Below the pieces are notes generated by a model. The model saw only the letters and a program-made list of their open reading frames with translations, had not been told where the DNA came from and searched no databases. This document shows positions 3,981 to 62,536 of a stretch of DNA of 64,000 nucleotides, piece after piece. The translations under genes were made by a program, and so were the position numbers. The stretch lies in NCBI GenBank assembly GCA_000004985.1, contig GG738859.1; one strand, given 5' to 3'. Every line of letters starts with the position of its first letter. Position 1 is the first letter of the stretch. The stretch is from Naegleria gruberi. Taxonomy: Eukaryota.

Positions 3981-4383
3981 TTATATTTTAATGATTATGA
4001 TGATGATGATTAATAATAATAATTGGAAATTAAGTAATATCAATGTTAATAATAATAGTAGTAGTAGTATGAATTCAACTCAATTATTCTAGATTATCTG
4101 AATAGAAGATGGAATAATTTTCTTGTAGATTTAAAATACTCAACAAACTTACACATTTACTCTTATTTGAGATGTGTTATTATTAACATAATAAAATAGT
4201 AATGTATTACTTTAAATGTTTTTCTTCTCTTGTTGATATTTTCCCTCCAATTATTTTACTCTCTAATGAAAAAAAGAAGGCAGAATATTGTTGTTCTTCA
4301 CCTCCAACCAATGAGTGATGGGAGAGGTTCAAAAAAATGCTGTACACTCTTATGTTGAATTTAAAAATTGTTCGTAAAAAAAA

Positions 4384-19900: not shown

Positions 19901-22900
19901 AGCGCAAAGNNNNNNNNNNNNNNNNNNNNNNNNNNNNNNNNNNNNNNNNNNNNNNNNNNNNNNNNNNNNNNNNNNNNNNNNNNNNNNNNNNNNNNNNNNN
20001 NNNNNNNNNNNNNNNNNNNNNNNNNNNNNNNNNNNNNNNNNNNNNNNNNNNNNNNNNNNNNNNNNNNNNNNNNNNNNNNNNNNNNNNNNNNNNNNNNNNN
20101 NNNNNNNNNNNNNNNNNNNNNNNNNNNNNNNNNNNNNNNNNNNNNNNNNNNNNNNNNNNNNNNNNNNNNNNNNNNNNNNNNNNNNNNNNNNNNNNNNNNN
20201 NNNNNNNNNNNNNNNNNNNNNNNNNNNNNNNNNNNNNNNNNNNNNNNNNNNNNNNNNNNNNNNNNNNNNNNNNNNNNNNNNNNNNNNNAAATCTGATATT
20301 CTCAATTTGCCAGATATTGATGATTTGGAAAAGTGGCATCTTATTTGTTTGCTCACTCAATCTTGTCCTGCTGTTTTTCATTTGAATAACTCGCTCAGCA
20401 AACACTACTTTATGATTATGATATTAATATCGTCTGATATAGTTTTAAATAATGGTGTTACTCCTCTTTCTCCATTGTTAATTTCAGTCTTTGCATGGTC
20501 TTGGTGTAATTTTGAGTTTTATCCTCAGATGAACATGTTCTTAGAGGCAGGATTAGAGATGGAAAAGACTAGATACAGGAATGAGCATGAATTGGCAAGT
20601 TGCACATTTATCAAGTTGATGAGTTATTACTTTTCGCCAACAATTAACCCTCTTGAGGTGTGGAATATATCGGAGGAAGCCTTCTTATTGTCTGTGAAAT
20701 CAAAGAACAAACACTATGGTGGTTTCTCTATTCTATGGTATCCATTCCATCACTTATTCTATAGCCACGGAGATGTAAAGACTTCTATTGGATTGAGCTT
20801 GAATTCAATTGAGATTTTAAAGAGAAATGGAAATGTTATGTTGATGGATGCCAGTAAAATGATACTGGAATTGAAATATGTTCTTTCAGGAGATGTAGAC
20901 CATTTCCAGCCAACATATGTAAGCCAAGTGAAGGAATATCCATCCTATAGACAAATGCACTACTCGTTCAAGGGAATTTCACTCTATTTCCAAAATGAGA
21001 TTGAAAAATCTTTCAAGTGTATGGAAAAATCGTATGATTTTAGAGAAGACTCTGTTGGCATGTGTTCTAGCTGGATTGATTTAATCTTTCTAGGTTTAAT
21101 CTCAGCTATCTTTTTGAGAAGTGCTCAAGAAAAGATTGAAAAAGCCCAAGAAATATTGAAATACTCCATAGAAAGATTGGAAATGATTTCCCAAGTTAAT
21201 TCTTCTGTTTTTCTTGCTCCTTTGGAGTTAATAAGAGCCGAGACGTTGTACTCAGAATATTGTAGAACAGGTGTCGAAAATACTAGAAAAATCATTTCTC
21301 ACTATAGAAAGAGTTATGTTATGGCTGAAAAGGAAAGAAATACCTTTTTAGCTAGGCTGATTAATTTGAGAACAGGAGAATTTTATAACAGTCTAGGTAT
21401 GGATGATGGTATTAGTGGAAACTACTTCCTTAGAGCTATGGAATCTTTTGAACAGTTTGGTGCTTCCATCGTTGTTGATTATATTTTGGAGAATTATTCA
21501 GGTCACATTGATGGCTATTCATCATTTAGTAATAGAAATCCTGAACAAGTATTCTCTAATACTTCTCTATCTGATGAATCAACAGATCACACTCTTGCTG
21601 GAGTAACAAAGAGCAGAATTTCTGAATCAACAGAATTGGATTTTAGAGAGATTTTCATTTCAATTCTGCCAATTCTTTCAGAACAAACGTTATCACCAAG
21701 ATGTTGTTTGATTTTGAAGAGAGATTCAACAGTTTATGTAGATGCCGAATTTAATGCAGGTATGAATTCTATTGAAGCACTTTCGTCCATCAAACAATTC
21801 GAAAATAGTGATTTGGACAAGTTTTCAGATTCATTCCCTCTCAAGATGATCCACAGAACTCTAAGATCCAGAACAGAGCAACAACTCGTATGGAATGACA
21901 ATGAGAAAGAGTATTACTTTGTGAAGAATGTAGTGGCCTCTGCTTTATCTATTCCTATCATGAAGAAAAAGACAGTAATAGGTATGCTTTTATTATTTAT
22001 ATTATTTAATGTATTAAGGTTGTATATACTTGGAAAATAAGGAAACGAAGGATGTATTCACAACTGAAAAAATTAACCTTGCCAAACTTATCATCTCTAT
22101 CAGTTTAGACAATGCTGGAATTTTCACATCCATTAACAAATCCTATGCTAGGTTTTTACCTGCTGAATTCCTAAAATTGCTTGGCAAGAGTCATGTAACT
22201 AAGATAAGGTTGGGTGATGCAATTTCTAGGGAAATGACAGTGCTCTTCAGTGATATTTATGGATTTACAGAGATTATGGAGGGACTTTCTGCAAAGGATG
22301 GCTTTGCTTTTATTAATCTACTATTGAAGAGTATTGCACCTCCAATTTCAAGAAACTCTGGATTTATTGACAAGTTTGTTGGTGATGGAATATTGGCATT
22401 GTTTATTGAACCACAAGGAGCTGTCACTGCAGCTTTAGAAATGATTTCAGAATTGGAAGTTTTCAATACTAGAAATAATACCAATGTAAAGTTGGGTATT
22501 GGTTTGCATCATGGTATTGTTCAACTTGGTACAATTGGATATGAGCAACGTTTGGATGCTACTGTTATTTCAGATACTGTGAACACAGCTAGCAGATGTG
22601 AATCTCTCACAAGAACTTTTCATTCACATATTCTAGTTACTAAACCAGTTATGGATGTTGTTACAGTGCCACACAGTGTGATAAGTACCGTATTGGGTAA
22701 ATTCATGCTGAAAGGAAAACACATACCTCATCAAATATACAATATAGCTTCCAAGTCATGGAAAGGAAGTGGTACTGCTAAAGAATTCACTTTACTAAGC
22801 AAAGTTATTGATCTCTTCTCAAGGAGTGAATTTACCGAATCATTTGCCCTCGCAGAAACAATTCTCAAGAATACAAAGAACAATACCATTATAGCTGCAT

Positions 22901-23019
22901 GCAACATGTATAAGGAAGCATCAACATTATACGCATCAGTTGTTTTACCAAGTGAATGGCAAGGTGAAATTAGGTTGACCAAGGATGGAGAAGTCAGAGA
23001 GTACTTTCAAGATAAATGA
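16979..23019 (+). CDS. multidomain signalling protein of about 1980 aa: Ser/Thr protein kinase domain, P-loop STAND/AAA_16-type NTPase, TPR-like helical region, GAF-like domain and class III adenylyl cyclase catalytic domain; proposed join(16979..18930,18986..21981,22019..23019); contains the N-gap
   Basis: The kinase motifs are HADIKPENIIVDG, IRLIDFGKS and GSRMYCAPE...DIYSLGFVLFELFS. The NTPase has Walker A LLGGYSGIGKSSIVKEF and Walker B KKRLCIFLDDLQWTD, plus the FNHDRLQQAAYESL motif typical of kinase-AAA-TPR/GAF sensor proteins. The segment ending KKKTVIG|CIYLENKE is GAF-like. The cyclase has VLFSDIYGFTEI (metal Asp), FIDKFVGDGILALF (substrate Lys and metal Asp) and GTIGYEQRLDATVISDTVNTASRCESLT (Asn/Arg transition-state pair). 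Intron 1 is 55 nt (GTAAT..CTCTTTAG; an alternative is 18927-18969, 43 nt). Intron 2 is 37 nt (GTATGC..TTAAG) and restores the GAF-to-cyclase frame exactly. Confidence 0.7.
19909..20288. other. assembly gap: 380 consecutive N inside the NTPase/TPR region of the kinase-cyclase gene
   Basis: A literal run of n characters sits in the sequence. The reading frame is conserved across it only if the N count is correct. Confidence 0.99.
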
Positions 23020-23290: not shown

Positions 23291-24903
23291 ATGACAAGTA
23301 AATTAATAGATTTACGTACAATAACAGCATTATCAATATTTCTAACAAGTATAATAATAGTTAATGCTATAAATCAACATCAACAATTTTATACAACAAT
23401 TGTTCATTTAGTTTCATCTAAAATTAGTAGAATAATATTAATAGTAGATTTAATATTATTAATTATTTATTTTGGTAAATTATTATCAAAATTATTTTTT
23501 GGAACTTTAAGAATTTATGAAGAAGAAGTTATTTGGGAAAAGGGTTATTATGCTTTAATTGAAACTTGTTTAGCAATGACCATTTTTAGAGAAGAATTAT
23601 CTACTAGAATGTTATCAATGATGATCACTTGTTTATTTTTAAAAATATTTCATTGGATTTCTGAATTGAGAATTAAACATGTTTGTATTTTATTTATATT
23701 TATTTTATTTAATTATTTATTTTAATAATTTAATTTTATATTTTTATATTTAATTAAATATTTAAATAGTTAGAATCACTTCCAGAAACATCAATTAATT
23801 TATTTTTTAGATTATTTTCATGTTTATTTATATTAATTGGAATTGATATATATTTTTCATATGAATTAATTCAATTTTATTTTAAAGAAGGAGTAACATT
23901 AAGAATATTATTTTTATCTGATTTTCTAATAATGGTAATAATGGGTATTAGTATTAGTATTAGATTAATATTTCATGCATATAATTTATCTAAACAAGAT
24001 GAAGAAGGTAATAGTGAATGGGAATCTAGAGATGTTTATATATTTTATTTAGAAATAATATCAGAATTATTACAATCATTAGTTTATTTATCATTCTTTT
24101 TATTAATAATGACTAAATTTGGATTACCATTTCATTTATTAAGAAATATATATATTACATTAAGTAATGTTAAAAAAAAGATATTAGATTTATATAATTA
24201 TAGAAGAGCATCTTTAACATTGGATCAAAAATTTGAAAATGCAACTCAAAATGATTTAGATGAATTTGATGGAGTATGTGTTATTTGTAGAGAAGATATG
24301 ATTACAAATACTTTACAAAATCCAATTAAAAAATTACCATGTAAACATTTATTTCATTCTAAATGTTTACGTGGTTGTTTAGAACGTTCACAAGAATGTC
24401 CTATTTGTGGTCGTTCAATTGATTTATTATTAAAAGAACAAGAAGATCAATTAAAATTACAACAACAATTACAATTAAATAATTTAAATAATTTAAATAA
24501 TAATAATGGAAATGTTGGACATCATCATCATCATACACCAACAAGTACTAGTAATACTACTACTACTACCACAACTAGTACTACTATTAATAATATTAAT
24601 AATACTAGTAGTAGTACAGTTGATAATAATATTACAAATTTATTTACATCACAACAAGAAATATTAAATCAAATGAATATTAATTTAATTCAACAACAAC
24701 AACAACAACAACCATTAAATTTATTTAATTCTACTACTACTATTAATGATAATCAATTAATTGAAACAAATGAAAAATTACAACAAGTAATGATTGATAT
24801 GTATATTAGATATTTAGAATCAATGAAAGATAATATTAATCAAACTTTAGAACAATTAAAACAATTAAATGATTTTAATCAATCAAATAATAATAATCAA
24901 TAA
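23291..24903 (+). CDS. HRD1: ERAD E3 ubiquitin ligase HRD1/synoviolin (RING-H2); join(23291..23680,23770..24903)
   Basis: The N-terminus (ITALSIFLTSIIIVNAINQHQQFYTTIVHLVSSK...FGTLRIYEEEVIWEKGYYALIETCLAMTIFREE...FLKIFHWISELRI) aligns with human SYVN1 (LTALAVVNAYYQKQQFYPSVVYLTKSS...FGQLRAAEMEHLLERSWYAVTETCLAFTVFRDDF...FLKCFHWLAEDRV). The RING-H2 is CVICREDM...LPCKHLFHSKCLRGCLERSQECPICG. An 89-nt intron runs from GTTTGT at 23681 to AAATAG ending at 23769. The C-terminal tail is Asn/Gln/His/Thr-rich low complexity. Confidence 0.85.
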
Positions 24904-24967: not shown

Positions 24968-26155
24968 TTATTTAGTACCACCCATTAAATGAAAAGCCAA
25001 TTCATATGCATAAAAAGTAACACTATTAACAGGGAATGCTCTAATAACAGTTGTAGTAAAACCTCTATATAAATCTCTAATAGTATATTGTTTTAAAGCC
25101 TTTCTAATATTCATTTCTCTATCATATCTAACAATTGATTGAATTGAATCTGTTGGATATACTAATGCCCATGCTAATGTACCTGCCATACCACCTGACA
25201 TTAATAATGTAAATGCATTATGTTCAAATTTTTTACCATCATTTGAATTACCATTTGAATTATTATTAGAATTATTAAAATTATTTAAATAAAATTGTTC
25301 AAATTTTCTTTTAGATAATTCATAAATTAAAAAATAGGAAGAATAAAAAGTCAATTGATGATTTAAACAAGCAATATAACCATGAAAGAAACCTCTAGTT
25401 TTCCATAAATGTTTAATACAATTTGTAATTGATTGTTTTGATTGATTTGTTTCTTGTCCATTTGAAGTTTGCATTTGAATTTTAATCATTTCAGTTGGAC
25501 CAACAACTAAACTAATTGCCAATCCTGAAAATGCTCCACTTGCAAATATTGATAAATTTTCTTTCCATTCTTTATAATTTTCTTTACTATTTTCAATACT
25601 ATATTTAGACATCCAATCTTTACACATTCCAAATGATCCAAATAATACAAAATTAGAAGCTAATTCTCCTACAAGTGGACTTGATAATCCTCTATATAAT
25701 CCTTTAAAATAATCCCATTTAGTTTTAAATGTTTCATTAAATGAATGATGATCATTTTGAAACACTTGCACTTTTTTAAATTATTATTAAAAATTAAATT
25801 AAATATTATTTAAAAAAATAAAAAATAAAATTAAATATTATTATTATTTTAAAAAAAACATACTTCTAGTTTTAATAGTATCTAAAGGATAACCAACAGA
25901 AATACCAGCTAAACCACCAGCTGAACCAGCAATAAATTCAGCAATGACGTGTGTTTTTTTTTGATTATTGACATTTTCATTATTATTAATAATATTAATA
26001 ACAGAAGTAGAAGTATTATTACAATCAATACAAGGTTGATGATGTGGTAATATATGATGACTAATACTTGTATTTAAATGTGAATCTAAACATTGATTAA
26101 TTACATATTCATTATTTACTTGTTTATTATTATTATTATTCATTGAAATAATCAA
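24968..26155 (-). CDS. mitochondrial substrate carrier family (SLC25) protein; complement(join(24968..25770,25864..26155))
   Basis: It has three Mito_carr repeat signatures (PLDTIKTR, PTEMIKIQMQ and PTDSIQSIVR) and GFFHGY / YRGFTTTVIRAFPVNSVTFYAYE. A 93-nt intron (GTATGT donor; AAAAAAG acceptor) joins ...PLDTIKTR to MQVFQNDHH in frame. The first roughly 60 residues are Asn-rich low complexity. Confidence 0.8.
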
Positions 26156-30123: not shown

Positions 30124-30870
30124 TTACAACATCTTCTTGACCAATTGGTTGATATATTCTTCTCTGTTACCGAATGAACCACCCAAAATGAAGTGCTTCT
30201 TGATAGTTTCATAACCACCCTTTGGATGTTGCAACTTGAAAGGCCACAAAAGGTTTGAGGCTTCCTTGAAGTGTGGACCAACAGTGTGAATTTCGTGAAC
30301 CAAATCTTCAACACAGACAATATCCTTTTCACCCAACTTTTGTTCAATTTGAACGTTGCTAGTGATTGGCTTTCTATCACCGTTAACATTCAAAGAACCT
30401 CTCTTATAAATGAGTTGCTTGATGGTGGACAAAGATGGATAACCCCAAGCGACGTATGGTTCAACGAGCTTCAACAAGTTCAAAGTAGCCTTGTTAATTC
30501 TGACGAAGACACCGTTGTTGATTTGTCTGAGTCTCAAGAGTTGGAGAGCTTTCTTGGCCTTGGCAGCAACAGACTTGATACCTCTAATTCTGATGACGAA
30601 AGCCAATTTAGCTTGTGGTTCAACGAAGAGGGAACCAACTTTAGCAGCTTGATCGTGAGCAGCCTTGACGTTAGCTTCCTTTTGCTTGTATTCCTTAGCA
30701 TACTTTTCGGCTCTCTTCAAAGCCTTCTTTCTAAGAACAATGAGCTTCTTCTTTCTGTCGAAAGCGAGCTTGGCTCTTTCTTCAGTATGAGTTTGGAGTC
30801 TCTTTCTTCTCTTCAAGACAGTTTCTGGGGCTGGCTTTTGGACTCTAACGTTTTCAATTGTGACTACCAT
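30124..30870 (-). CDS. RPL7: 60S ribosomal protein L7 (uL30), single exon, 248 aa
   Basis: MVVTIENVRVQKPAPETVLKRRKRL...VEPQAKLAFVIRIRGI...LRLRQINNGVFVRINKATLNLLKLVEPYVAWGYPSL...LIYKRG...IVCVEDLVHEIHTVGPHFKEASNLLWPFKL aligns along its full length with eukaryotic RPL7. The codon usage is GC-richer and looks biased, as expected for a highly expressed gene. The plus-strand ORF 30271..30906 is its antisense shadow. Confidence 0.9.
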   Translation of the reverse strand: MVVTIENVRVQKPAPETVLKRRKRLQTHTEERAKLAFDRKKKLIVLRKKALKRAEKYAKEYKQKEANVKAAHDQAAKVGSLFVEPQAKLAFVIRIRGIKSVAAKAKKALQLLRLRQINNGVFVRINKATLNLLKLVEPYVAWGYPSLSTIKQLIYKRGSLNVNGDRKPITSNVQIEQKLGEKDIVCVEDLVHEIHTVGPHFKEASNLLWPFKLQHPKGGYETIKKHFILGGSFGNREEYINQLVKKML

Positions 30871-32091: not shown

Positions 32092-35000
32092 ATGTCATCA
32101 AAAAGATCTAATTTATTACTCTCTAAAGATTATCAAAGTAAAAAATCATCAAAACAAACAACAAATCAAAATAATGATGATGATGAAAATCTAACACAAG
32201 AAGATAAAATTAATAGAAGAGTACAAAGTGTATTAAAAACACTTCCATCTAAAAAGGATGAAAATTTAATTAAATTTAAATCATTCTATGAATGTATTAA
32301 AGATGTTAAAATACTTTCGGAAGTACAATTTGATACTTATAGAAAAGAAGAATCAAAGAATGAACATGATTCAACTACTTTTTTATATGATAAAATGTTA
32401 GAATGGGATGAATTGAATTTAACTGTATGTTATTTATATTCTCAATATTTAATTTATAATTTACAATAATAATAGAAACATTATATTCAATTTAGATCAA
32501 ATATTCAATCATTTGTTAGAACATTACCTGAAATGATACATCACAAAGAAACTATTTGTGATATTTTTGTTAATCATTTAAGAATTAAGGATTCTCTTGC
32601 TTATCAACCTATTTTAGAGTAAGTAGTAGTTTTTATTTTTCATTACAATAATATTAAATATTCATTACAATAATATTAAATATTTAAAAAAACAGTCTAG
32701 TAACAATATTTGCTAAAGATTTACGACAAGAATTTTATCCATTATTTCCACGTTTATTTTATCCAATAGTATATAATATAAGTTCTGATAATATAGAATT
32801 GAATGGATTAATATTTAAAAGTTTAGCATTTTTATTTAAATATTTACAAAAATATATTATTAAAGATATATCATTATGGTTTGAAAAGTATAGTAAAATA
32901 CTTTCACATAAGAAATGGTATATTAGAAAATTTGCAGCTGAAAGTTTTTCATTTTTAATTAACAAACTTTCAGATGAAGAATTAAAAATTTATGTTGAAA
33001 AAGTTTTTAATTTATTAATTGAAAAACCATCACAAATAATGTATGATGGTGTTAGTCAAATGTTTTTTGAATCAATGAAAGGTATTTTAGGTAATTTACA
33101 TTCTAAAATGTCAAGATTATTACCTTTATTATTTAGACAATTAAATTGGAATTTAAATTATAATGGTACTATTAAACAACAATTAGCTGATATTGGTAAC
33201 AAATTTACTTTAATTGAAAAATGTTTAATTTTATTAAGAGATTATTCTAAAAATAAGTTAATTGCTAAACAAATTTGGGATTTATTTGTTATTGAAATTA
33301 AATTTTTAATTAATTCTATTAATTTAAATAATAATAATAATAATAATCAAATTAAATATTAATAATAATTTAAATAATATTAAAAATAATTTAAATAATA
33401 TTAAAAATTTAAATAATTTAAATAATAATGAATATTTAAATATTCAAATAGGATATTTTATACAATTAATTAGAACATTTAATACTATTGAAAAATATAA
33501 TGAAGAATCAATTTATTTAATTTTAAATTTATTAAATAGTAAAAATCTATTAATAGAATTTAATGCTCAATCATCACAAGCATTATTTTCATTTATTTCT
33601 GATATAATTGAAACATTACAAAGATCAGATATAATTGAAAATGTTAATAATTTATTATTTAATTGTTTTTATATTAAAGATAAACAAACAGTTTATACTT
33701 TTTATAGAAAATTAATGAAAACAATTGGAAATGAACAAGAATCAAATACAATTGTTAAAGAATTTTTAAGATTTGTTAATGATGATATTAATTATAATTT
33801 TGATTCAACTGTTGCTTTTTTATTAAATTTTATTCATACTAATACTACTAGTAATAGTAATTTAGATACAAATTTGGAATATACTTTATTATCTGATAAA
33901 AATTCTAAATTTATTCAAATTATTTATAACAAATTTATTGAAATTATTTCAAATATTAAATCACAACAAGATTTAATTCAATTTTCAAAACAATCAAATT
34001 CTTTATTATTATTATGGTCTATTTTAAATATTTTATCTATTTATGGTAAAAAATCAGATCAATATTTAAAAAATTTATATGAAAATGTTTATAAATTTTT
34101 ATTACAATTTATTAAATTAATTGATCAAAGTCAATATGAAAAGAAGGAATTACAATTATTACAAATTATTATTGCACAATCTTTAACTTTATTAAATCAA
34201 GTTTTACATTTCTATAATAAGAATTTTAATAATTTAATTGAAATTGTTATGGAAATTTCATGTAAATTTGGTTCATCATTACAAGTTTTAATTTCATGTA
34301 ATCAATTAATTGATAATGTAGAGTAGGTTTTTATTTTAATTTTTAATTTTAATTTTATTTAATTTTAATTTAATTTTAATTTTTAATTTTAAATAGTTCC
34401 AATTTATTAACAAATGATAAATTTAAAATAATTGCAGAATCATTAAAATCCAATCTTCAAAGTAAATCTGATAATCTAAGATTAGAAACATTAAAATATT
34501 TAACTAAATTTGAACAAGATGAAATTCAAAAAGGAATTGTTCTTAATAAGGTAGAAACTACTAAATGTGTAGTTTTAGAATTTTTAAGAGATTCAGAAGA
34601 ATGTGGATTTGATTGGGATCAATCACGTAATCGTACAGTTTTATTAGAAAAGGCTAATGAATTTTTAAAACGTTACACCATTCCACAAATTTACAAAACT
34701 TTAATTTCTAATTATGTATTTGGTTCATATTTTACAAAATATCAAATTGTATGGGAACCAACAAGTAATTTAGCATCAACAATGATGAGAATTAATTTTA
34801 AAGAATTTTGGAATTTATTAATACCAATTATTTCAAATATTTATCAAAAATGTAAGTTTTTTTTAATTTTATTTAATATTTTAATTTAATTTTAATTAAT
34901 AATATAATTTAATATTTAATATTTTTAATAATATAATAATATAATAACAAATCAGATGGAGAATATAAAAAAACACATTATAAATCAATGATTTATAAAT

Positions 35001-38000
35001 CTAAAAAAAGAGATGAAGAAACTAGTTTAAATTTTGAATCATTTTCTAAACAAGTTAAAAAAATAGAAAAGATTTCAGATATAGAAACTATATTTTTAAA
35101 AATTATTAAAGATGTTTCTAAACAACATACAGATTATTCAACATATTTAGATATGATATTTAATATATTTATAAATGGAGCAAGAGATTCTAAAAAAGAA
35201 GATGATATATTATTAGTATTTAATTCCTTTTATGAAAATGAATTTAAAGAATATGATATTGAAGAAGTTGTTAATTTTATTACTAGAAATCCAATGACTG
35301 GTCGTTTAGAAAAATTATTAAATTTAATTTCAGAATTTAATGAAGATTTCTTTAAAAAGGAAAAATCTAAATTTATCAAATCAGTTATTTTTAGATTATT
35401 TTCAACTTCAACAATATCAATTCAATTATTATCTTTAAAATGTTTACAAAAGTTTAATTTACCATATTTAACAAGTAAAACTGTTAAAAATTTACAAAAA
35501 GTAATTTCATCTAATAGAAGTGTTGAACATTTATCTAAATTAGATTTTATTAATATTCCAAAACAATATAAACAAGAATATATTCATTTACATTTAAAGG
35601 TTATTGAACCTTATTTATTAATGTTTGATATGACTAAAAAGAGAGGTAAAAATTCTAAAGATGCAATGATTAAAAAATGGAAAATTAGAGTTCATCAAGT
35701 TATTGAATTTTTAGGTCAATTACCAAAAGAAACACTTGAATATTTTATTAACATGTTATTTAATAGATTTAAATCTATTGATAATAATAATGGTAATGAT
35801 AGTAATATTGATAGTAATATTGAGAGTACAAATACTAATAATAGTGATGGTAAATTTGCTGAAGATTTAATCAAGGCAAATACATTCCAGTTACGTTGGT
35901 TATTAGATATTATTGAAGAAATTTTAACATGTTTAACTGGAAATTATCATTACTTTTATAATCAAGTATTGGATTTATTAATTACTATTATTGAATTGAG
36001 AGTTGATGCTCATGAAATGGAAGTTGATCAAGAAGAAGAAGAACAAAAATTACTTGAACAACAATTACTTGAACAAGAAGAAGAAGAAGAAGAAGATGAT
36101 GAACAAGATGAATCATCCACTATTAAAGATTCTGATAGTAAATCATCTGAAAAATCAGACAAGATGACTGATGAAGTTGATGATGAAGATGATGACCAAG
36201 ATGATGATGATGATGAATCTACTGCTACTTCTATTCAAACTACTTCTACTACTAAATCAACTATTGCTAAATCTACTACTTCTACCACAACTACAACAAC
36301 TGATAATAATACTAGCTACTACTGTTAATAAGAAACCAATTATTAGACAATATTATAAACCAGCATCATCTAAACAAAAAGTATCATTAACATTAACATT
36401 TAAAAGAGCAGTTGAATTACTTGAATTATTCTTTGATAGAAAACAAGAATTTGATTATAGTATTGAATTTACATCACACGTAATTTCATTATTTACAAAA
36501 TTCTTTGAAAATATTAATAAGAAATCATCAAGAATTGAAGAATTACCTTCTTACTTTTCAATTTTATTTTCATGGTTTGATAAACCTAAACTTTATTATT
36601 TAATTAAATATTATGAAAAGGAATTAATATTTAAATTTATTGAATTAATTGATCAATATAATGTTTCTAATGTTGTATTTGATCAAGTTTTATCTATTTT
36701 TGATAAAATATTATCAAATAAGGATGAAATTTTTATGAATTTAAATCCAAACTTTTCAAAAATTACAACAGATATTGAAAATGGTTTAACTATTGGTATG
36801 AAAATATTTGAACCTTCAATTATTAATCAAATTTTAATTGCATTTTATAATTTATTTATTGAATCTAATTATTCATCTAAATCTATTAATAATAATAATA
36901 ATAATAATAATTATAAATCTAAAAATAATAGTTATAATAATAATAATAATAATAATAATAATTTAAACAAATTAAATGATGAATTAAATGAACAATCAAA
37001 TGAAAAACAAGAATTTTCTAAAAAATGTTTTAAATTAATTGATAAAATGAAAGGTTATTTTGATGAAACATCACCTGCTGATATTATTTTAACCTTTTAT
37101 GGAACATCAATTAGAGATGGATCTTCTTTAAATGAAGATGAAGCACGTGTTTTATTACATTTATTTAAAAAATATTTACCATATTCAAGTGAATCTATTA
37201 AAACATTATATATTATACATTTTTCTAAAATGTTTATTTATAATAATGAAACTATATTTAGAAATCAAATTTGTGATATAATTGAAAAATTAGCAATTGG
37301 ATTTAATAATGAAAAATTAAAATTTACATCTAAAATTATTAATGGATTAAATGCACAAATTGAATCACATTTAACAAATTTAGATACATCATCTAGAATT
37401 GAAATATTTAAAGAATTAAATTCAAATTTAAATATAATTTCAAATTTAAATGAAATTGAATTATTTCCAATTATAGGTAATTTAATATTCTTTTTAGGAC
37501 ATAAAGAATGGATATTACGTGATTCATCTTCACAATCATTATTAAATATTATTGAAATTATTAAATTTAATAATGAAATGAAAGAAATTAAAAGATTATT
37601 AATTTTACATGTTAAAAGATTATCATTTTCAGATAAATTATTAGAAAAGAGTGAATCAATGTTAGTTTATTCTAAAATGATTGATCAATTTATTGAATTG
37701 GAAAATTTAAAACCATTTTCAAAATCATTAGAATTAATTTCAAATGTTAATTATCAAAAGAAATTAGAAGGTTTACAAATTATTAATTCTATTTTAATTC
37801 CAATTGAAAAATGTAAAATTCAACAAGATTATATTTATCAAATTGTACCTCCACTCATTTATGAATTAATGGTAATTAATGATAAATCTATTCAAGATTT
37901 AGTTAAACAATTATGTATTTATTTAGTAACTGTTTTAGATTGGAATTATTCACATCCAATTTTAAATCAATTAGTTACAATGATGGGTACATATGGTTTA

Positions 38001-41000
38001 AAGGTTTTATCAAAGAGAAAGAAATTAGCATTGGATATTATATGTCAAATTGTTGATGTATTTCCATTTGATAAAATTAATGATCATGGTTTTAATAGTA
38101 GTTATAGTTATAATAATAGAAATGATAATAATAGATATAATAATAGAAGACATGAATCAGAAGAACCATTATCAAATAGTACAGTTACTATTGAAAAGGA
38201 TACTACAAATGATGATGATGATAATGATGCAGACGACAATGAAATGATTGATGAAAATGAAATTCCAAAAGGTAGAAGAATGAAGAGATATTTCATGAAA
38301 GATTTCATTCCAAAAGTAACAAAATTCCTTTGGGATAAGAAATTAGAAATTTATGTCATGCGTATGCAAGTTTGTTTCTTAATTATTAAAGTATTAAGAA
38401 GATGTGATAAAACACAATTAGATGTACATTTATCTAAAATGGTATTAGATGTATTAGGTAAATTAAAGAGTAAAGATGAAGAACAACAACAAGTTGCTGG
38501 TAAAGCATTAATTGACATGTTTAAAGAATTGGGAAGTTCATATTGAAAGTAATGTCATCAGATCACAAAACTACTCACATTATTACACAAGCTGTACATT
38601 CAGTCATGTTAATTTTATTGAATGAAAATACATATCCACCTTTAAAAACATTTAAAAAGAGAAAAGTTTCACGTTTTGATATTGAAAAGGCACAAGATTA
38701 TGAAAATCAATCATCAATAGGTGAAAATTCAGTTTCATTAACTGCATCTGATAGTTCTTCATCAAAACATTTCAAATCAAAACATGAAAATACTTTATTT
38801 AATTGTTTTGAATTATTAGGTTCAATTATTGATATTAAGAAGAGTTTATCATATATTATTAATGATATTAATTTCAAAATTAGAATTGTACATAATGCTG
38901 AAATTTTAAAGAGATTTGAATTTGTATTTAAATTTTTATTGAAAGGTTTAATGAGAAATAGACAAGTTATTCAATCTAATCAATCTATTACTAATACTAT
39001 TACTAATAATACTACTACTAAACAATCTAATCAATCTAATAATAATAGTGAAATGTTATTAAATGTAATTAAAAATGAATTATATCATTATAGATTATAT
39101 AAAAAGAATTTTACAACAATAACAGATGGAGAACAAGATAGATTTCATTCTGTTAAAACTACTAAAGATAGAAAGGAAGAAAATTTCCTTGTACAAAAAG
39201 AACCAGGTAGACTTGGTGCAATTGATCAAGCTAATGATATGAAAATGAAATTATTAGCAGGATTAATTGATAATTCACATATTATTGTACAATTTTATTT
39301 AAAAATGTTTGAAAAATGTATTAAAAGATTTAAAATTCAAGTAGATAAACATTTAGAAATGATGAATGAAATAATACCATTATTATTAAAATATGTTAGT
39401 GGTAATCATTTAAATGTAGCATTGGTTTCATTTAGAATTTTAATTGAAATTTGTAAACGTACACCTAAAGTATTTAAAATATTAGAAGATTCTAAACAAT
39501 TATTATTAAATTCTACATTTGATATATTAACAAATTCAGGTATTGATTCTACAAATTTAGAAACATGGGAAACTATATATACAGGTATTAAATATTTTTT
39601 ACAATCTGATATTTCACATAAATATCCATTATCATTAGGACAATTAGATATTTTATTAGATATGTTAAAAATTGAAATTTCATCAACTAGAAAAACCTAT
39701 TCAATTCAAACATTTCAAATTTTATCAAATTTAATTGATAATAAGGTACAAATACCACAAATTTATGATTTAATGGATAAATCAATTACAATTATGTTAA
39801 CTACACTTGAAATGGAAATACAAAAAACTATAGTTGAAATGTTGGTTAATTTTTATTTAAATTATCCATTTACAAATGAAGTATTACAAGACAAGTTAAA
39901 TTATTTATTTAAAAATGTTTTAAATGAAAATATGTCAAATGAATCTAAATTATCAATTTTAAATTTAATTCAAACTATAATTAAAAAATTTCCAAATAAT
40001 TTCCTAAATGATAAAACTGAATTAATTTATTATCCTCTAATTTTAGAATTAGAAAAACAATGTAAAAAACGTGTTATTGCAGGTGATAACAAATCAATTT
40101 CATCAATTGTTTCAAAATTAAGAGAAACTTTACAATTTTTTATTAAAATATTAAATGATGAAAATTTAATTAAAATTATTAAAATTACAAATGATTGGAT
40201 TTTAAATGAAAAGAAATTAAAACCAATTGGAGTTAATTCTATTTTAATTTTATCAAATGTATCAAATGGTAGTAAATTAAAATCATCATCAGAATTTTAT
40301 GAAAATATGATACCTCAATTAATTTCTATAATTGAAAATTCAGATACAAATTTAGAAAAATATCCAAGTTTAGTATTAGAAACATTGGAATGTTTTTATT
40401 CATTATTTTCACAATCTATTATTTCATTCCAACATGTTGATGAAATTTGGAATTCCTTATTAAAAATAATTTGTGATGAAAATGATTTGAGAAGTGAAAT
40501 TAGATTAGAATCTTTGAAAATCTTTGAATTATTTGTTTCTAAAAAGAAGAAGAATGAATCTAAAATTTTAAATCATTTACAATATTTAGAACAAATGTCA
40601 ATTTCAATTATAGAATTATTTAAATCACAATATATTAATGATACAAATGTAATTGTAATTGTTAAAGTTTTAATTTATTTATTTAAATTATTAGATTCTA
40701 ATAATGGAAGTGAAATTTTACATAAATTATTTAAATCTTTACGTAAAATTTCAAATCAAACATTTGATTTTGACACCAATGAAAATATTACATTTAGAAG
40801 AATGAATATTTTAAAGTTATTTATAGGTTTAGCTTCTAAATATGGTAATCAATTACAACCTTATTTAATTTACATGACACCATTAATTTATAGATGTTGT
40901 GAATTTTCAAATAGAGATAAATCAATTGTAACAATTGAATTGGAGAAATTTGCTAAAGAATCTAAACAATTAATTCAACAATCATTAACAGATTCAAATT

Positions 41001-41242
41001 TATTTGTTCAAGCTTATGAAGAAGGTAGAAAATTAGTTGAAAGTAAAAGTGAAAAGAAATCAAAATCTAAAGAACAATCAATCATATCAAAACCATCACA
41101 ATATGCTAAAAAGAGATTGGAATCAAATTCTAAAAAGAATGATACTAAAAAGAGAAAGTTAAAAGAATCTTTTAATCAACCAACTGTACAAATATCATCA
41201 TCTGGTAATGTACAACAAGTTAAAAAGAAGAAGAAGAAGTAA
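32092..41242 (+). CDS. UTP20: UTP20 (DRIM) small-subunit processome component, about 2900 aa, at least 5 exons; three apparent frameshifts
   Basis: Exon 1 (32092..32424) ends ...LEWDELNLT and exon 2 (32476..32618) begins KHYIQFRSNIQSFV..., matching human LLKWRELNLTEHFGKFYKEVIDKCQSFNQL. Exon 3 starts at 32696 and reads ...HKKWYIRKFAAESFSFLINKLSDEEL against human HKKLHIRNFAAESFTFLMRKVSDKNAL. The introns are 51, 77, 74 (34323..34396) and 104 (34852..34955) nt. The C-terminus is a Lys-rich tail, ...KKRKLKESF...VKKKKKK, like human UTP20. Frame breaks with no possible intron occur at about 33328-33362 (an A/T run), 36300-36330 and 38540-38550. Confidence 0.85.
33361..33432 (+). repeat. AT-only tandem direct repeat (unit about 24 nt, aataatttaaataatattaaaaat, 2.5 copies) inside the UTP20 coding region, encoding NNLNNIKN repeats
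   Basis: A direct sequence repeat is visible at 33361-33384 and 33385-33408 with a partial third copy. It lies immediately after one of the UTP20 frame breaks. Confidence 0.6.
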
Positions 41243-52390: not shown

Positions 52391-54367
52391 ATGAGCAAGA
52401 CAACAACAAGAACATCTTCGGAAAGTAAATTAGCCTTTACATCATCGGAGGCTATTAAAAAGATGGCTGATGGTATCATTTCGGATAAGAAGAATACAAA
52501 TAATTTGGTTAAATTAACAGAGTTTTTAGAAGAATTATTTCCTTTATCTTCTCAAAAACATCGTAAACTTGCTCTTCAAACAATTTCATCACTTGTGGAT
52601 GTTTTTAGTCACTTTTTTGAGGAAGGAACTCTTATATTAACAGTAACAGAATCAAAAAATCAAAAAGATGCTGTCGCTTGTGATGTTAGTAAAGAAAAAT
52701 CGATACAAAAAAAGGAATATATGAAATGGATTTATGAACAATATGTTTCATTCACAAAATATTTACCACTTTATGCTGTTCACTATTTTACTAAATTTAA
52801 TGAAAATTATGAAGAAATTGAAACTGTTATTAAGGCTATTTTGGATCTTTCTAAAAAGGAATTAACTTCTGCTAGTGGATCAACACTTGTTGAAATGGAA
52901 AGAGAAAGAAATAGAATTAACACTATTATAAATGAAGGTCCATTCGGTTCTTTTATTTATCATTTGATATATGACCCAAATAACAGTGAAGGAAAAGAAT
53001 TTGTTATCACTTGTCTTAAAGAATATATTTTCAAATTCCATGATTTGAGATTTTTTGCTTACATTTCATTGACAAATGCTATCAGAAAGATTCGTTCAAA
53101 GAAGAAGAGAATGCTTACATATCCACAACTTTATGATAATGTTTTGCAAATTATTGATGGTATTCCAATAATTGATGTTATTGGTAGATTTTATTTATAT
53201 GATGGTTATGATTATGATAGTGATGAAGTAAATAGTGATGAAGAAGATGGAATGGATGAAGATGGTCCAAATGAAGATGGTATTCCAGATGATTTTATGA
53301 TGGATCCTGAATTGGGTGATTTGAGTTCATTGACTTTACCAAGTTCTCAAAAGAAATCAACAGAAGAAAAGAAGGAAAGCGAAGAAAAGGATGAAGAAAT
53401 GAAGGACGAAGATAAGGAAAATAATTTACTTGATCCAGATGTTCACATTAATGCCTATACAAACTTTTGGCTTGCCTTCTTACAAATACCAGAAATGACT
53501 AGATCTGTTTATGAAAAAGTTTTGAGAAAGATGAGCACAGAAATTATTCCACAATTTGAAGATCCATTCTTGTTGAATGATTTCATTTCTAATTCTTTTG
53601 ATCAGGGAGGATTGGTTGCACTTCTCTCAGTTAAGAGTTTATTCATTTTGATTACCGAGTATAATTTGTAAGTTTGAAGAGTTTTTAATACTAATTAATG
53701 TAGAGTTTATGACCAATTTTATAACAAGATTTACGCTATCATTGAACCATCTCTTTTCACTATGGATGATAGACATGAATTTTTCGAGTTGCTTGATACA
53801 TTTATGAAATCTACCCATTTACCTGAATATTTGGTGGCTGCCTTTGTGAAAAAGCTTGCTAGAATTTCATTATTCGCACCTGCTTATGCCTGTAATTATA
53901 TTCTTGCTGTTATTTATAATCTTGTTTCTAGACATCCACAAATTAGTTTCTTGGTTCAAAAAGGAGAAATTGAACCAAAGTATCTTTCAAGAATTCAAAA
54001 GAAATATTTAATGGAAAAGAATTCAGAAATTTATCTGAAAGATAACCGAAAGATTGTAGATCCTTTTGATCCAAATGAAAAAGATCCAAAAGAATGTAAA
54101 GCAATGCAAAGTCAACTTTGGGAAATTGAGACTTTACTTTATCACTCGAATGGAGAAGTTGCTAAATTTGCTAGAGATATTAAGAGACATTTCCTTGAAG
54201 GTTTCCCTCTTTTTGATATTAAGAAATATACAACCATCACAACAGAAACCATGTTTGCAACAATATCAGAAAAGAAAAAGTTTGTAAAGCTTTCAGGTGT
54301 TGAACCTCCAAAATCATTATTTGGAAGACAAGCTGATCATAACGTGTTTGGTCTATTTGATTTATAA
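52391..54367 (+). CDS. NOC4: nucleolar complex protein 4 (NOC4/UTP19; CBF/Mak21 domain); join(52391..53667,53704..54367)
   Basis: YDQFYNKIYAIIEPSLFTMDDRHEFFELLDTFMKSTHLPEYLVAAFVKKLARISLFAPAYACNYILAVIYNLVSRHPQISFLV aligns with human NOC4L (PDFYRKLYGLLDPSVFHVKYRARFFHLADLFLSSSHLPAYLVAAFAKRLARLALTAPPEALLMVLPFICNLLRRHPACRVLV). This alignment is obtained only by splicing out a 36-nt intron (GTAAGTTTGAAGAGTTTTTAATACTAATTAATGTAG, 53668..53703). Confidence 0.8.
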
Positions 54368-54372
54368 AATTT

Positions 54373-56226
54373 TTACTTTCTTGCACTCTTTGAACTGCTT
54401 CTTGGAGGAACTAAACTTGTTCCATTTCGTTCTCTGTAAAGTTTTAACATTCTTGATACATCCTTAGTGTTGATTGTTGGTATTTCTTGTTGTACATATC
54501 CATCATATTTCTTAATGAAGGTATTCAATGAGAGATCAAAAAGGGATGAAACGAGAACAGGTTTCTTTACCTCTTTCTTAGGTGGAGCTTTTTTTTTATC
54601 TTCTTCAGGAGTCTCTGTCGGGCTCTCACTTCTATCTTTACTATTTTGGGAATTGAGCAAACAACAAATGTATTGAATTTTAGTTTCTTCAATAAGATAA
54701 GTTGTATAACTTCCAATTTTGGCCCTGTTGAGCTCCTCCTCTTTTGTCTTAAATAATTTACCAAGATAACCCATCTTGAAGCTCTCAATAAAGTAGTCCA
54801 GTGATAATTGAATATTATTTTCCACATTGAAATAGTATTCTCCCAATATTTTGTACACAAAACCGTCGATATATTGCTTGGAAGAATCCAATTGATACAG
54901 CATTTCAAAATCTTCCACTGTATCCTTGATAGAGCCAGATAATAAAAAACATGATCCTCTCGATTTGTAAAGGGCTGGTTCATCAGGAAGTTCTCCAATT
55001 GCCATATTGAGGCAGAACATTGCTTTGTCTGTTTCATTTCTGTCCATTAAGATTGTAGCTTTGGAGACATAAGAATCCACCAATAGAGGTGGATTATCTA
55101 GCGGCTTTTTGTCAATGCAAGATGAGAATGCAAACAATGCATCCTCAATTCTTCCAATGATCAAAAGCAAATGTCCATAATGGTTCAAATATTCAATGCT
55201 ATCAGAATTAACTTTTACAAGAGCCTCATAGATAGAAATGGCATCCTCAATTTCTCCATTTTTTTCATGATTTGCAGCTGTTTTCTCGTATTCAGCACAA
55301 AATTGAGGATCCAAATCTCTAATTTTCTTAAAATCTTTCTTAGCATCGTCAAGATAACCTAATTGCGACAAGACATCACCTCTTAAAAAATAAATGTAAG
55401 GATCTTGATCATCTACGTCATTGATAATTCTGTTGAAACTGTCAAATGCTCCATTTAAATCTTGTAATGTGGAACAACATTTTCCAAGACTGACCAGGAC
55501 AGTTTTTGTTGGATGTTCAATTTTCAAATATTTCTCAAATTCTCTTCTTCCCTGATCAAAATCTTGTAAGTGAACATAACAATCTCCTCTTACAAAGTAT
55601 GCAGATGAAACAAAAGGATCTTTTTCCAAACAAACACTCAAGAATTCAATTGATTCTTGATAATTCCCAGCTCTCCAAAGTGATTCTCCTAGCATATTAT
55701 AAACTTCTGGTCCATTCATATCTTCTTTTATACATTCCTTAAACAATGCAGCTGCATCAACAAATTGTTCATTTAAATATAATTCCTTTGCTGTTTCCAA
55801 TTTTCTTTCTCTTTCTAACCTTATTTCCTCCGGTTTTGGTTTGAAGGCTTTTGAGTTTTTTCTTCCCTTTTTGTATTCCTCAACTAGTTTTCTACTAAAA
55901 TCAGTGCTCAACATTTCATAAGGTGTTTTCTTTGGTCTGATAATTGGATTCTGTTTTCTATACTCTCTTTCTTTAGACTCTATGAATCTTGAATGATACA
56001 AGGTTTTGCAATAATTCATATATCTGTCAGTGTAAAATTTTGAATCCCTCTTCATGGTTCCTTCCCGAATGGTTGATGTCTCGTAAACTTTGTTAATCTT
56101 AACAACCGGTTGATTGTATTCATTAAATACCACAACTTTTGATTTTTCATCCCTCCTACTCTTAACATTTGATGAATTGAGTACCGATGATGAGTTTAAA
56201 CTATTGCTCGTTTCTGATGATGGCAT
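54373..56226 (-). CDS. tetratricopeptide-repeat (TPR) protein, 617 aa, unassigned family
   Basis: It has about 9-10 TPR-like 34-residue repeats (W-LG-Y-A-F-P signature positions; for example EVYNMLGESLWRAGNYQESIEFLSVCLEKDP, SAYFVRGDCYVHLQDFDQGRREFEKYLKIEHP and ALYKSRGSCFLLSGSIKDTVEDFEMLYQLD). A basic, Lys-rich segment lies near the C-terminus. It is a single ORF with GC-richer composition. Confidence 0.55.
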   Translation of the reverse strand: MPSSETSNSLNSSSVLNSSNVKSRRDEKSKVVVFNEYNQPVVKINKVYETSTIREGTMKRDSKFYTDRYMNYCKTLYHSRFIESKEREYRKQNPIIRPKKTPYEMLSTDFSRKLVEEYKKGRKNSKAFKPKPEEIRLERERKLETAKELYLNEQFVDAAALFKECIKEDMNGPEVYNMLGESLWRAGNYQESIEFLSVCLEKDPFVSSAYFVRGDCYVHLQDFDQGRREFEKYLKIEHPTKTVLVSLGKCCSTLQDLNGAFDSFNRIINDVDDQDPYIYFLRGDVLSQLGYLDDAKKDFKKIRDLDPQFCAEYEKTAANHEKNGEIEDAISIYEALVKVNSDSIEYLNHYGHLLLIIGRIEDALFAFSSCIDKKPLDNPPLLVDSYVSKATILMDRNETDKAMFCLNMAIGELPDEPALYKSRGSCFLLSGSIKDTVEDFEMLYQLDSSKQYIDGFVYKILGEYYFNVENNIQLSLDYFIESFKMGYLGKLFKTKEEELNRAKIGSYTTYLIEETKIQYICCLLNSQNSKDRSESPTETPEEDKKKAPPKKEVKKPVLVSSLFDLSLNTFIKKYDGYVQQEIPTINTKDVSRMLKLYRERNGTSLVPPRSSSKSARK

Positions 56227-60304: not shown

Positions 60305-61320
60305 ATGATGAAACAATTATCGTTACTTTTTGTTCTCTTCCTCACCCTGTCGAGTGTGATGATGATGGTTTCCGCTGATTCAACAACAACAACATTAGGA
60401 GAAAAGAGTTATTGTATCAATGAATTGGATGATAGTTTTATTAACAAGTAATGTATCATCATGTCGATTTAAAGTGTTTTAATAATAATTATTATCTTGT
60501 TCATTGTGATGAAAAAACCTATATAGATGTCATCGTCAAGTACCAACAAACTTTTTAACAATGGTTGCTAATTTTGTTGTTCAATGGGTAAATCCGAGAA
60601 CATTGGCTATTACAGCAGTCATATTTTTACTTGCAATTCCAGTTTTACAAATTGCTTCTGTTAGAAGAGATTCACAAATTATTCGTCATACTCTTGCCAA
60701 GTTTTTACACAACAAGATTGTAATTTTGAATTGTAGGTTTTCAGTTTGAACTTTTACTGAAATATTTCAATAGTTTTACATAGAGTCTGTTATACTCTCG
60801 TTTTGGATGTTGCCTTATATACTGTATTCAGACAAATTAGACCATGTAGTTGTACTACTGATGGAGGAAATACTTTTCAACATTTTGGAAGTCGATATGG
60901 AATGCCATCTGGTGATGCTATGAGTGGAGCAATTTTTGGAATTTTCCTTTTTGATGTTGCCCCTTATCATGGGTGGTTGGCTAGAGCTTTTGCCATTATC
61001 ATTATCCCAATTGTTTGTTTGGAAAGAGTTGTTTTGGGGTATCACACTGTAGCTCAAGTCACTGTTGGCTCATGCATGGGTATTGCTTTGCATTACTATT
61101 CTACTAGAGCTCCTCAATTCATGATCTTCTTTGACGGTATTGTTCAAATCGTTTTAGGTGCCATTCTTCTTCAAGTTGATCCATCTCTTGTCAATGAAAG
61201 AGATTCAATGAGTAAGTTTTTTTAATGATTTCAATTTTATTTGACACTTTAATAGATAACTTGTTCTCTTGGTATGTCTGGGGTGTTTCTTTCCAAATTT
61301 ATGTTTTCATGGAAATGTAA
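60305..61320 (+). CDS. DOLPP1: dolichyl-diphosphate phosphatase (DOLPP1/CWH8, PAP2 family); join(60305..60447,60527..60732,60774..61211,61256..61320); a possible additional 3' exon is listed separately
   Basis: The PAP2 motifs are FRQIRPC (KxxxxxxRP), YGMPSGDAMSG (the PSGH position) and LERVVLGYHTVAQV (SRxxxxxHxxxQ). The gene is collinear with human DOLPP1 (QEPRPCGG...KYGMPSSHSQF...[22 protein letters not shown]...IPNVLWFEY against ours NNLFSWYVW). The introns are 79, 41 and 44 nt and all conserve the frame. Exon 1 is a signal/TM-like N-terminus and is the least certain. Confidence 0.7.
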
Positions 61321-61362
61321 GTTCAGCTATTGAGAATTGATTTTATTAACTATTTTTAACAG

Positions 61363-61621
61363 TGGAAGATACTATTTCAAGAAGAAGAATTTCAAGAAGA
61401 TCAGATATAGTTTGCAACACTTGATTTCCACTAAGCAAATTGGTGAAGAAGTTGACTCTGATATTGATCATGAAAAGGATACCAAGCATCTTGATGCTCA
61501 AATGGATGTTACTAAATTGACTGACTTTGGATTTACTTGTATTTCGTTCACACTGATGTCAATTATTAACTTCTTCAGTACAGCCATCGGCCAAGAAGGT
61601 TGGCTAACTAAAATGCACTAA
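61363..61621 (+). CDS. candidate alternative/extended 3' exon of DOLPP1, or a small tail-anchored ORF
   Basis: The DOLPP1 stop codon TAA at 61318-61320 overlaps a perfect GTAAGT donor at 61317-61322. An acceptor TTTTTAACAG ends at 61362, giving a 46-nt intron. Splicing would continue the frame into ...IGRYYFKKKNFKKIRYSLQHL...DAQMDVTKLTDFGFTCISFTLMSIINFFSTAIGQEGWLTKMH (85 extra aa with a TM segment). The unspliced protein length fits the human homologue better. Confidence 0.3.
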
Positions 61622-61695: not shown

Positions 61696-62536
61696 TCATT
61701 TCATATGTGCCCTTAGTAAACGTATCAGAAAGTTCAATGCCTCATGGGTATTCTCATCTGTTTCTGTTGATCTTACTGTACACACTCCTTCCACTAAAAG
61801 TAGTTTTTCAAACATCATGTTTCGTTGCTCAATTAATTCTTGTAAATATTCATACTTCTTCTCGTTTCGTTCAAGTTTTAACCTTATTTCTTGCTCCAAT
61901 TGTGAACAAAAATGATCAATATCCTCTTGTGATGTTGGTAAATAGTCATTCAGATCATCATTGTACATATCATCTTGCCTGAGAAAATTTTCAATATCCT
62001 GCTCAGCTAGGATGGGAAATAACTTCTTTCTGTATTCTGCATTCTTAATGTAATTAATTGGAGGATTACTCTTTTGTTTTCTTCCAAGAGCACAAACTGC
62101 AGTCTCTCTTCGATCCGTCACTTCTGAATTATCTATCGTTTCAAAATTTCTTGCAGCAAATGTATAGATCCACTGAAGGAATTCAATATTATCTTGTAAC
62201 TTCCCATTTGAAATCTTATCTGATGGTATCGAATAAGGAATCTTCAATTGGGAAAATAATTTCTGTAATTTATCCAAATTTCCCTTCCTATCCAATGGAT
62301 ACGTAGCATTGAAATTAATTCTAGTGAGAGGAAGTTGCTCCGGAAACATTGCATCAAATAACAAAATATAAGCAACGCCATCACTAAATTCCTCCAATTT
62401 TGTATAAGCTGTTTCCAGTATAGCATTCACCCACTCCAATAATTCTAAATTATAATAATTAATTCCTCAATATTTGTTCTTTTTGATCAAAAAGTAACGT
62501 ACCCTTTCTCCCTATTGGAATAAGTTTTGCGGGCAT
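61696..62536 (-). CDS. EB1: EB1 (RP/EB family) microtubule plus-end-binding protein, about 260 aa; complement(join(61696..62444,62503..62536))
   Basis: The calponin-homology domain IGRKGELLEWVNAILETAYTKLEEFSDGVAYILLFDAMFPEQLPLTRINFNA...GKLQDNIEFLQWIY aligns with human EB1 ([51 protein letters not shown]...GKFQDNFEFVQWF). The C-terminal coiled-coil/EBH-like region is EKKYEYLQELIEQRNMMFEKLLL. A 58-nt intron (GTACGT donor; AATTTAG acceptor) sits after a 34-nt first exon, and the total is a multiple of 3. Confidence 0.75.

Follow-up and report, generated by a model that had tools for sequence, protein, structure and literature searches.

Protein-coding genes in a 64,000-nt stretch of Naegleria gruberi contig GG738859.1 (hereafter the window) are interrupted by segments that begin with GT, end with AG and are as short as 36 nt. 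Judged from their sequence, these segments are very probably canonical U2-type GT-AG spliceosomal introns of nuclear protein-coding genes of N. gruberi NEG-M, and belong to one population of ordinary size. In the Naegleria lineage an ordinary intron measures 36-60 nt, and those of 75-134 nt occur mainly in the most AT-rich genes of the window. The kind of intron is known and most instances are already in GenBank; the only new item is an unmodelled 36-nt intron in the NOC4 gene, together with the truncated public protein that results from it.

Exact identity to public proteins carries much of the evidence. Unspliced open reading frames (ORFs) of the window equal N. gruberi NEG-M proteins EFC46305.1 and EFC46302.1 end to end (530,355-bp scaffold), and spliced models equal EFC46200.1, EFC46201.1, EFC46303.1 and EFC46190.1. 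The GenBank proteins that were matched exactly contain the 37-, 41-, 44-, 44-, 46-, 79-, 107- and 134-nt introns described below.

The NOC4 gene and its 36-nt segment

The predicted gene and its intron are as follows.

52391-54367, + strand: NOC4 gene, two exons, 646 amino acids (aa); CBF/Mak21 domain at residues 411-582
53668-53703, + strand: NOC4 intron, 36 nt, phase 2, GTAAGT...TACTAAT...GTAG; shortest intron of the window, left unspliced in the public model

The segment at 53668-53703 reads GTAAGTTTGAAGAGTTTTTAATACTAATTAATGTAG. Although its length is divisible by three, it cannot be coding, because the upstream frame runs into TAA, TGA and TAA inside it. The product spliced across it contains a CBF domain (Pfam, E = 2.4e-37) and matched human NOC4L (7mq8_SU, E = 1e-37) as well as Chaetomium/fungal Noc4 (6rxt_US); the domain and the collinearity with Noc4 of the small-subunit (SSU) processome identify the gene as NOC4/UTP19 of the CBF/Mak21 family. 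At the junction, where LFILITEYNL meets VYDQFYNKIY, the alignment to human NOC4L (7mq8) and Chaetomium Noc4 was free of gaps. An alternative donor at 53659, giving a 45-nt intron, would delete the conserved YNL and was ruled out by the alignments.

In the syntenic N. lovaniensis locus (L001) we found a 52-nt intron (GTAAGT…CAG) at the same codon position, and introns also sit at this position in another Naegleria contig (L002; 50 nt) and in a close relative of NEG-M (L005; 38 nt). NOC4 of Willaertia magna (L003) and of a metagenomic heterolobosean (L004) was uninterrupted at this site. The segment thus behaves as an intron, since in the four Naegleria sequences lengths of 38, 50 and 52 nt stand against 36 nt, differences that are not multiples of three, while the exons on either side are conserved.

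The public N. gruberi NOC4 model (P0001, 426 aa) is 100% identical to the spliced product and ends …EYNL at the TAA of the intron. Because it ends inside the intron, it is truncated (426 versus 646 aa) and has lost the CBF domain. The full-length 646-aa product had no exact entry in a collection of 15 billion proteins, in which the C-terminal ORF occurred only as a call from an environmental assembly. The public model could instead be taken at face value, with the locus truly split or truncated, the 36-nt segment retained and the CBF-domain ORF a separate gene or decaying remnant; gene callers that do not splice give two ORFs in related contigs too. However, over 221 aa the downstream ORF shares 68% identity with N. 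lovaniensis, and it bears the domain that defines the family; in the segment, a perfect GTAAGT donor is combined with a TACTAAT branch motif and an AG acceptor. Its 38-, 50- and 52-nt counterparts have the same boundaries and keep the frame through splicing alone, and both the uninterrupted genes of Willaertia and L004 and the gap-free junction against human and fungal Noc4 speak for a single gene. We regard a split locus as very unlikely and treat NOC4 as one two-exon gene.

The N. lovaniensis NOC4 model (P0003, 615 aa; L001 10001-11971) itself looks imperfect: it is without about 30 conserved residues (…LLD..H..AF.NFWLAFLQ.PEM…) that are present in other Naegleria sequences, and its span implies a second 'intron' of about 71 nt beside the real 52-nt intron.

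Other predicted introns and their genes

A first-pass annotation of the window had proposed tiny GT..AG introns at seven places, NOC4 included. On the + strand, all seven segments have GT at the start and AG at the end, with lengths of 36, 37, 41, 44, 44, 51 and 57 nt. Retention of any one of them leads to an in-frame stop, or to a frameshift and then an early stop, whereas deletion brings two long ORFs together in a compatible phase. The GenBank models of 2010 splice four of the segments exactly (37, 41, 44 and 44 nt). The proposed boundaries, lengths and restoration of frame therefore held at all seven; alignments with orthologues and identity to GenBank proteins confirmed that each removal restores a contiguous protein, and homology across the junctions that the segments are not artefacts of ORF calling. 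The list was incomplete, however: introns of 43 nt (kinase-cyclase) and 46 nt (PAP2) are also present. The introns of these five genes, apart from the longer ones of UTP20, are as follows.

18927-18969, + strand: kinase-cyclase intron 1, 43 nt, GTAAGT...TATAG; new to the list; joins ORFs 16910-18931 and 18951-22037
21982-22018, + strand: kinase-cyclase intron 2, 37 nt, GTATGC...TTAAG; junction identical to GenBank model P0011
57986-58029, + strand: NCA2 intron, 44 nt; spliced product equals EFC46200.1 at every residue
60448-60526, + strand: PAP2 intron 1, 79 nt, GTAATG...TATAG; N. lovaniensis counterpart 65 nt
60733-60773, + strand: PAP2 intron 2, 41 nt, GTAGGT...AATAG; N. lovaniensis counterpart 84 nt
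61212-61255, + strand: PAP2 intron 3, 44 nt, matching EFC46201.1; N. lovaniensis counterpart 50 nt
61317-61362, + strand: PAP2 intron 4, 46 nt, new to the list; N. lovaniensis counterpart 50 nt
32425-32475, + strand: UTP20 intron 1, 51 nt, GTATGT...AATAG
8705-8761, + strand: PDE intron, 57 nt, GTAAGT...TATAG

In the kinase-cyclase gene, the 43-nt intron joins the kinase and AAA_16 parts, and one Pfam AAA_16 match (residues 504-701) spans its junction at about residue 650. Over the junction of the 37-nt intron, the GenBank protein P0011 ('soluble adenylate/guanylate cyclase') reads …KKKTVIGCIYLEN…, and the orthologues P0012 and P0013 are contiguous there. This kinase-AAA-GAF-cyclase gene (about 16979-23019) is interrupted by a 379-nt run of N at 19910-20288, an assembly gap. 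The first Met beyond the gap is where P0011 (854 aa) begins, so that the large gene is publicly present only in pieces.

For the PAP2 gene, which the first-pass annotation had labelled DOLPP1, the two introns then given (41 and 44 nt) are both correct, but the gene has four (79, 41, 44 and 46 nt). Its end had been placed wrongly at a TAA formed by the GTAAGT donor of intron 4, so the last exon (61363-61621) was missed. The five-exon product (gene 60305-61621) equals EFC46201.1 exactly, and all four intron positions are kept in N. lovaniensis with different lengths. The only family match that we obtained was to the PAP2 superfamily (PF01569, E = 5.6e-12). The protein's N-terminus resembles a signal peptide and its C-terminus is extended by 100 aa; it reads PSGD and ERVVLGYHTVAQ where PAP2 phosphatases usually have PSGH and SRxxxxxHxxxD. 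On these motifs the product may depart from a standard dolichyldiphosphatase in its catalysis.

The site of the 44-nt NCA2 intron lies within a single Pfam NCA2 match; the N. lovaniensis coding sequence is contiguous at that site (L001 15745->15746), the intron being absent there. At UTP20 intron 1, where LEWDELNLT meets KHYIQF, alignment was gap-free to human UTP20 (7mq8_SP) and to yeast Utp20. The PDE junction, …KKLNEI followed by RDKLDVNNTIGWW…, was contiguous and gap-free in N. fowleri (P0030), Willaertia (P0031), Acrasis (P0033) and a transcriptome ORF (P0036). Alternative PDE donors at 8717-8746 were rejected, as they would insert residues absent from all orthologues.

Introns of 74-134 nt were predicted in the following positions.

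3546-3652, + strand: IscU intron, 107 nt; product read from the second Met identical to EFC46190.1; junction within the NifU_N domain
7511-7644, - strand: intron of the coactosin/ADF-like gene, 134 nt; product equals EFC46303.1
23681-23769, + strand: HRD1 intron, 89 nt; junction at residue 130, within the TPR_SYVN1_N match (residues 8-278)
25771-25863, - strand: intron of the mitochondrial carrier gene, 93 nt; junction at residue 94, within the Mito_carr match (residues 64-150)
32619-32695, + strand: UTP20 intron 2, 77 nt; junction …ayqpildlvtifakdl… contiguous with human UTP20
34323-34396, + strand: candidate UTP20 intron 3, 74 nt, from ORF continuity and a GTAGGT...AATAG pair, without homology support
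34852-34955, + strand: candidate UTP20 intron 4, 104 nt, from ORF continuity and a GTAAGT...ATCAG pair, without homology support

Identity to GenBank proteins or Pfam matches across the junction thus bore out the four longer introns of the first-pass annotation, namely IscU (107 nt), HRD1 (89 nt), the carrier (93 nt) and coactosin (134 nt). The HRD1 intron has a non-consensus GTTTGT donor and 3% GC, and one synoviolin-like domain match lies across its junction. The HRD1 and carrier models had no exact sequence match in the public protein collection, probably owing to different start codons or boundaries in the public models. A search of the PDB with the middle part of UTP20, aimed at introns 3 and 4, returned no matches.

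Assembly or sequencing artefacts, in the form of small spurious insertions in a draft, could also interrupt reading frames, and the window is a draft with a 379-nt gap of N and several apparent 1-nt frameshifts in AT-rich coding regions. Yet GT..AG ends go together with an extended donor consensus in every segment, introns occur at the same positions in independently assembled genomes of other Naegleria species or strains, and the GenBank models splice the segments. This explanation is so improbable as to be nearly negligible, and we proceed with the segments as spliceosomal introns.

Intron signals, lengths and local base composition

We assembled 17 supported introns from gene-by-gene models and one stringent scan, unfiltered scans for GT..AG pairs or ORFs being too noisy. 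Their lengths are 36, 37, 41, 43, 44, 44, 46, 51, 57, 74, 77, 79, 89, 93, 104, 107 and 134 nt (median 57). GT stands at the 5' end and AG at the 3' end of all 17, as expected of U2-type introns, and the donors (GTAAGT 9, GTATGT 3, GTAGGT 2, GTATGC 1, GTAATG 1, GTTTGT 1) follow the extended consensus GTRNGT, which is complementary to U1/U6. GTAAGT or GTATGT accounts for 12 of the 17 irrespective of length. In line with the same assignment, removal restores the frame and a contiguous alignment with orthologues; as for non-coding sequence, in NOC4 and PAP2 the position is kept between species while length and sequence are free to vary. A simple YTRAY pattern occurred in 14 of 17 introns, in sequence so AT-rich that it gives many chance matches. 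We looked for the U12-type donor /[AG]TATCCTT with branch site TCCTTAAC, and ATCC at positions 3-6 was missing from all 17 donors.

Such introns would be removed through intron definition, with recognition across the intron because the short ones are only 36-57 nt long. The signals would be the strong donor (GTAAGT/GTATGT), an intron body very rich in A+T, in most introns a YTRAY that resembles a branch site and lies 9-30 nt before the acceptor, and a (T/A/C)AG acceptor. For the 36-nt intron these would be GTAAGT, a TACTAAT whose putative branch A lies about 26 nt from the donor and about 9 nt from the acceptor, and TAG.

The first-pass annotation had described very short introns as coexisting with a class of ordinary ones. 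A gap between 57 and 74 nt among the 17 lengths would agree with two mechanistically distinct classes, 'mini' (about 36-57 nt) and 'ordinary' (about 75-134 nt), as would base composition, the long introns being almost pure A+T (GC 3-19%) and far more AT-rich than the short ones (GC 12-30%). However, 17 introns are too few to establish bimodality, the same donor and acceptor motifs recur over the whole length range, and short and long introns are mixed within genes (PAP2 79/41/44/46 nt; UTP20 51/77/74/104 nt). Orthologous introns also switch 'class', as in PAP2 intron 2, which has 41 nt here and 84 nt in N. lovaniensis. Moreover, length scales with local GC: it was correlated with the GC of the flanking 600 nt (Spearman -0.62, p = 0.007, n = 17), a value that draws on non-independent introns from about ten genes. 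These shared motifs, mixed genes, class-shifting orthologues and the GC correlation argue for one population that is continuous over 36-134 nt and in which length increases with local AT-richness; we consider two classes distinctly unlikely, and the division made in the first-pass annotation did not stand.

Besides the non-independence of the introns behind this correlation, some points weigh against a single population of U2-type introns. Removal from the mRNA is something that we infer for all of the introns, and the 36-nt NOC4 intron is both the shortest and the sole one shown unspliced in a public model. The simple YTRAY pattern was not matched in 3 of the 17 introns. The PDE search retrieved no N. 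gruberi public model, the exact PDE product also being absent from the collection.

When the window was scanned stringently for GT..AG introns of 10-35 nt that would be required to connect long ORFs, none with a consensus donor came up, which makes 36 nt the minimum within the window. A bolder possibility is that, with about 36 nt at or just below the modelling limit of the 2010 annotation, a hidden population of introns of 36 nt or less exists throughout the genome, that public proteins like NOC4 are systematically truncated or split, and that the strongly bimodal local base composition sets intron length; we consider this unlikely. It is far less likely that non-canonical introns of still smaller size, or recoding sites, account for some of the apparent 1-nt frameshifts in the window's AT-rich genes in place of draft-assembly errors.

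Apparent +/-1 frameshifts occurred in AT-rich, low-complexity coding sequence at 1434-1486 (-), 5408-5478 (+), 33328-33359, 36168-36325 and 38525-38543 (+). No GT..AG intron accounts for these five sites, apart from a possible 14-nt GT..AG at 38525-38543. UTP20 has three of the frame switches, of which that at 38525-38543 would be repaired either by one missing A (GGAAG for GGAAAG) or by the 14-nt GT..AG. The GenBank mevalonate kinase EFC46302.1 (434 aa) stops at ...KNGRIN, and a conserved C-terminus, MEELIDKNHSLLNDIGTGHPKLD...KLTGAGGGGCGF, follows in another frame. A second missed mini-intron was ruled out here: the 52-nt stretch in which the frame switches is without GT, so that the switch is a frameshift and not an intron. 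One further gene switches frame between ORFs 4378-5478 and 5408-7102. The frameshifts are probably errors of the draft assembly or allelic indels, although five per ~20 kb of AT-rich coding sequence are many.

The base composition of the window is strongly bimodal in a 2-kb GC profile. Gene GC ranges over 0.19-0.42, with UTP20 and HRD1 at 0.19, mevalonate kinase at 0.22, the TPR gene and kinase-cyclase at 0.33-0.35 and RPL7 at 0.42; AT-rich genes at 32092-41239, 23291-24903 and 1145-2735 contrast with those at 16979-23019, 54376-56226 and 30127-30870. Low-complexity inserts rich in N, Q and T occur in the AT-rich genes, whose introns are longer and consist almost entirely of A+T. Across the syntenic part, GC in the N. 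lovaniensis orthologues is uniformly 0.34-0.38.

Intron positions also differ between the two species. N. lovaniensis has two other NCA2 introns, of about 63 nt (L001 15581-15643) and about 60 nt (16073-16132), at points where N. gruberi is contiguous (57881/57882 and 58354/58355), and its CH-domain gene has a 53-nt intron (L001 19033-19088) where N. gruberi is contiguous (61786-61788). This suggests appreciable recent intron gain or loss within Naegleria. The split of N. lovaniensis NCA2 into two gene models (330 + 355 aa; L001 13911-16228) looks imperfect beside the one continuous N. gruberi gene, which equals EFC46200.1.

Consequences for annotation and comparison with other lineages

The value of these results lies mainly in annotation hygiene, and they touch no open biological question. 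The first-pass annotation was right that short introns matter for gene prediction, as the public NOC4 model truncated at the 36-nt intron demonstrates. Domain-based surveys of presence and absence that use N. gruberi as a free-living discoban reference could miscount NOC4, a ribosome-biogenesis factor, and probably other genes, and gene prediction and read mapping in Naegleria should permit introns down to about 30 nt. N. gruberi was re-annotated with RNA-seq hints in a 2025 study (PMC12695648), which may already have fixed the truncated NOC4 model.

Published figures on intron size are few. A study of N. fowleri set the minimum intron length in TopHat to 30 bp, chosen from its predicted genes, and quoted for N. 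gruberi a mean intron length of 203 bp, a mean being sensitive to a few long introns (PMC8296547). Our literature search found this mean and the 30-bp minimum only, and no published histogram of N. gruberi intron lengths.

The nearest relatives of the window's proteins are those of N. lovaniensis, N. fowleri and Willaertia. The N. lovaniensis introns that we delimited in the syntenic locus measure 50, 50, 52, 53, 60, 63, 65 and 84 nt, and at a neighbouring locus Willaertia magna has two annotated single-intron genes with introns of 39 nt (GTAAGT…TTAG) and 49 nt. Annotated heterolobosean introns (N. gruberi, N. lovaniensis, N. fowleri and Willaertia magna) share with those described here GT..AG ends, GTAAGT/GTATGT donors and a size range. 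Against the annotated N. gruberi introns of the window, the 36-nt NOC4 intron differs in being 1 nt shorter than the shortest and publicly unspliced. The first-pass annotation had held a lower limit of about 36 nt to be unusual; 36 nt is indeed the minimum in the window, but such lengths are usual in Naegleria and Willaertia.

That judgement had taken the genome to be dictyostelid-like. The products are instead identical to N. gruberi NEG-M proteins, and these exact matches to a member of the Heterolobosea (Discoba) rule out a dictyostelid origin. The superficial likeness consists of AT-rich GT..AG introns and of AT-rich genes whose low-complexity coding tracts are rich in N/Q, GC being 0.18-0.25 in parts of the window; the very AT-rich, N/Q-rich genes are presumably what suggested Dictyostelium. 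Introns of Dictyostelium discoideum average roughly 150 nt, and this yardstick, by which 36 nt looks unusual, does not apply because the sequence is not dictyostelid.

With the ultra-short introns of ciliates, chlorarachniophyte nucleomorphs and Giardia, the introns described here share small size, near the physical lower limit for splicing. Ciliate and nucleomorph introns have 15-30 nt and very narrow length distributions, whereas here the lengths spread widely (36-134 nt) and the boundaries are canonical throughout. The minimum of 36 nt and median of 57 nt in the window differ from a regime with a mode of 30 nt or less and a narrow spread. A Giardia intron of 35 nt with a CT 5' boundary is reported in PMC1201135, in contrast to the canonical boundaries of the N. 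gruberi introns in the window.

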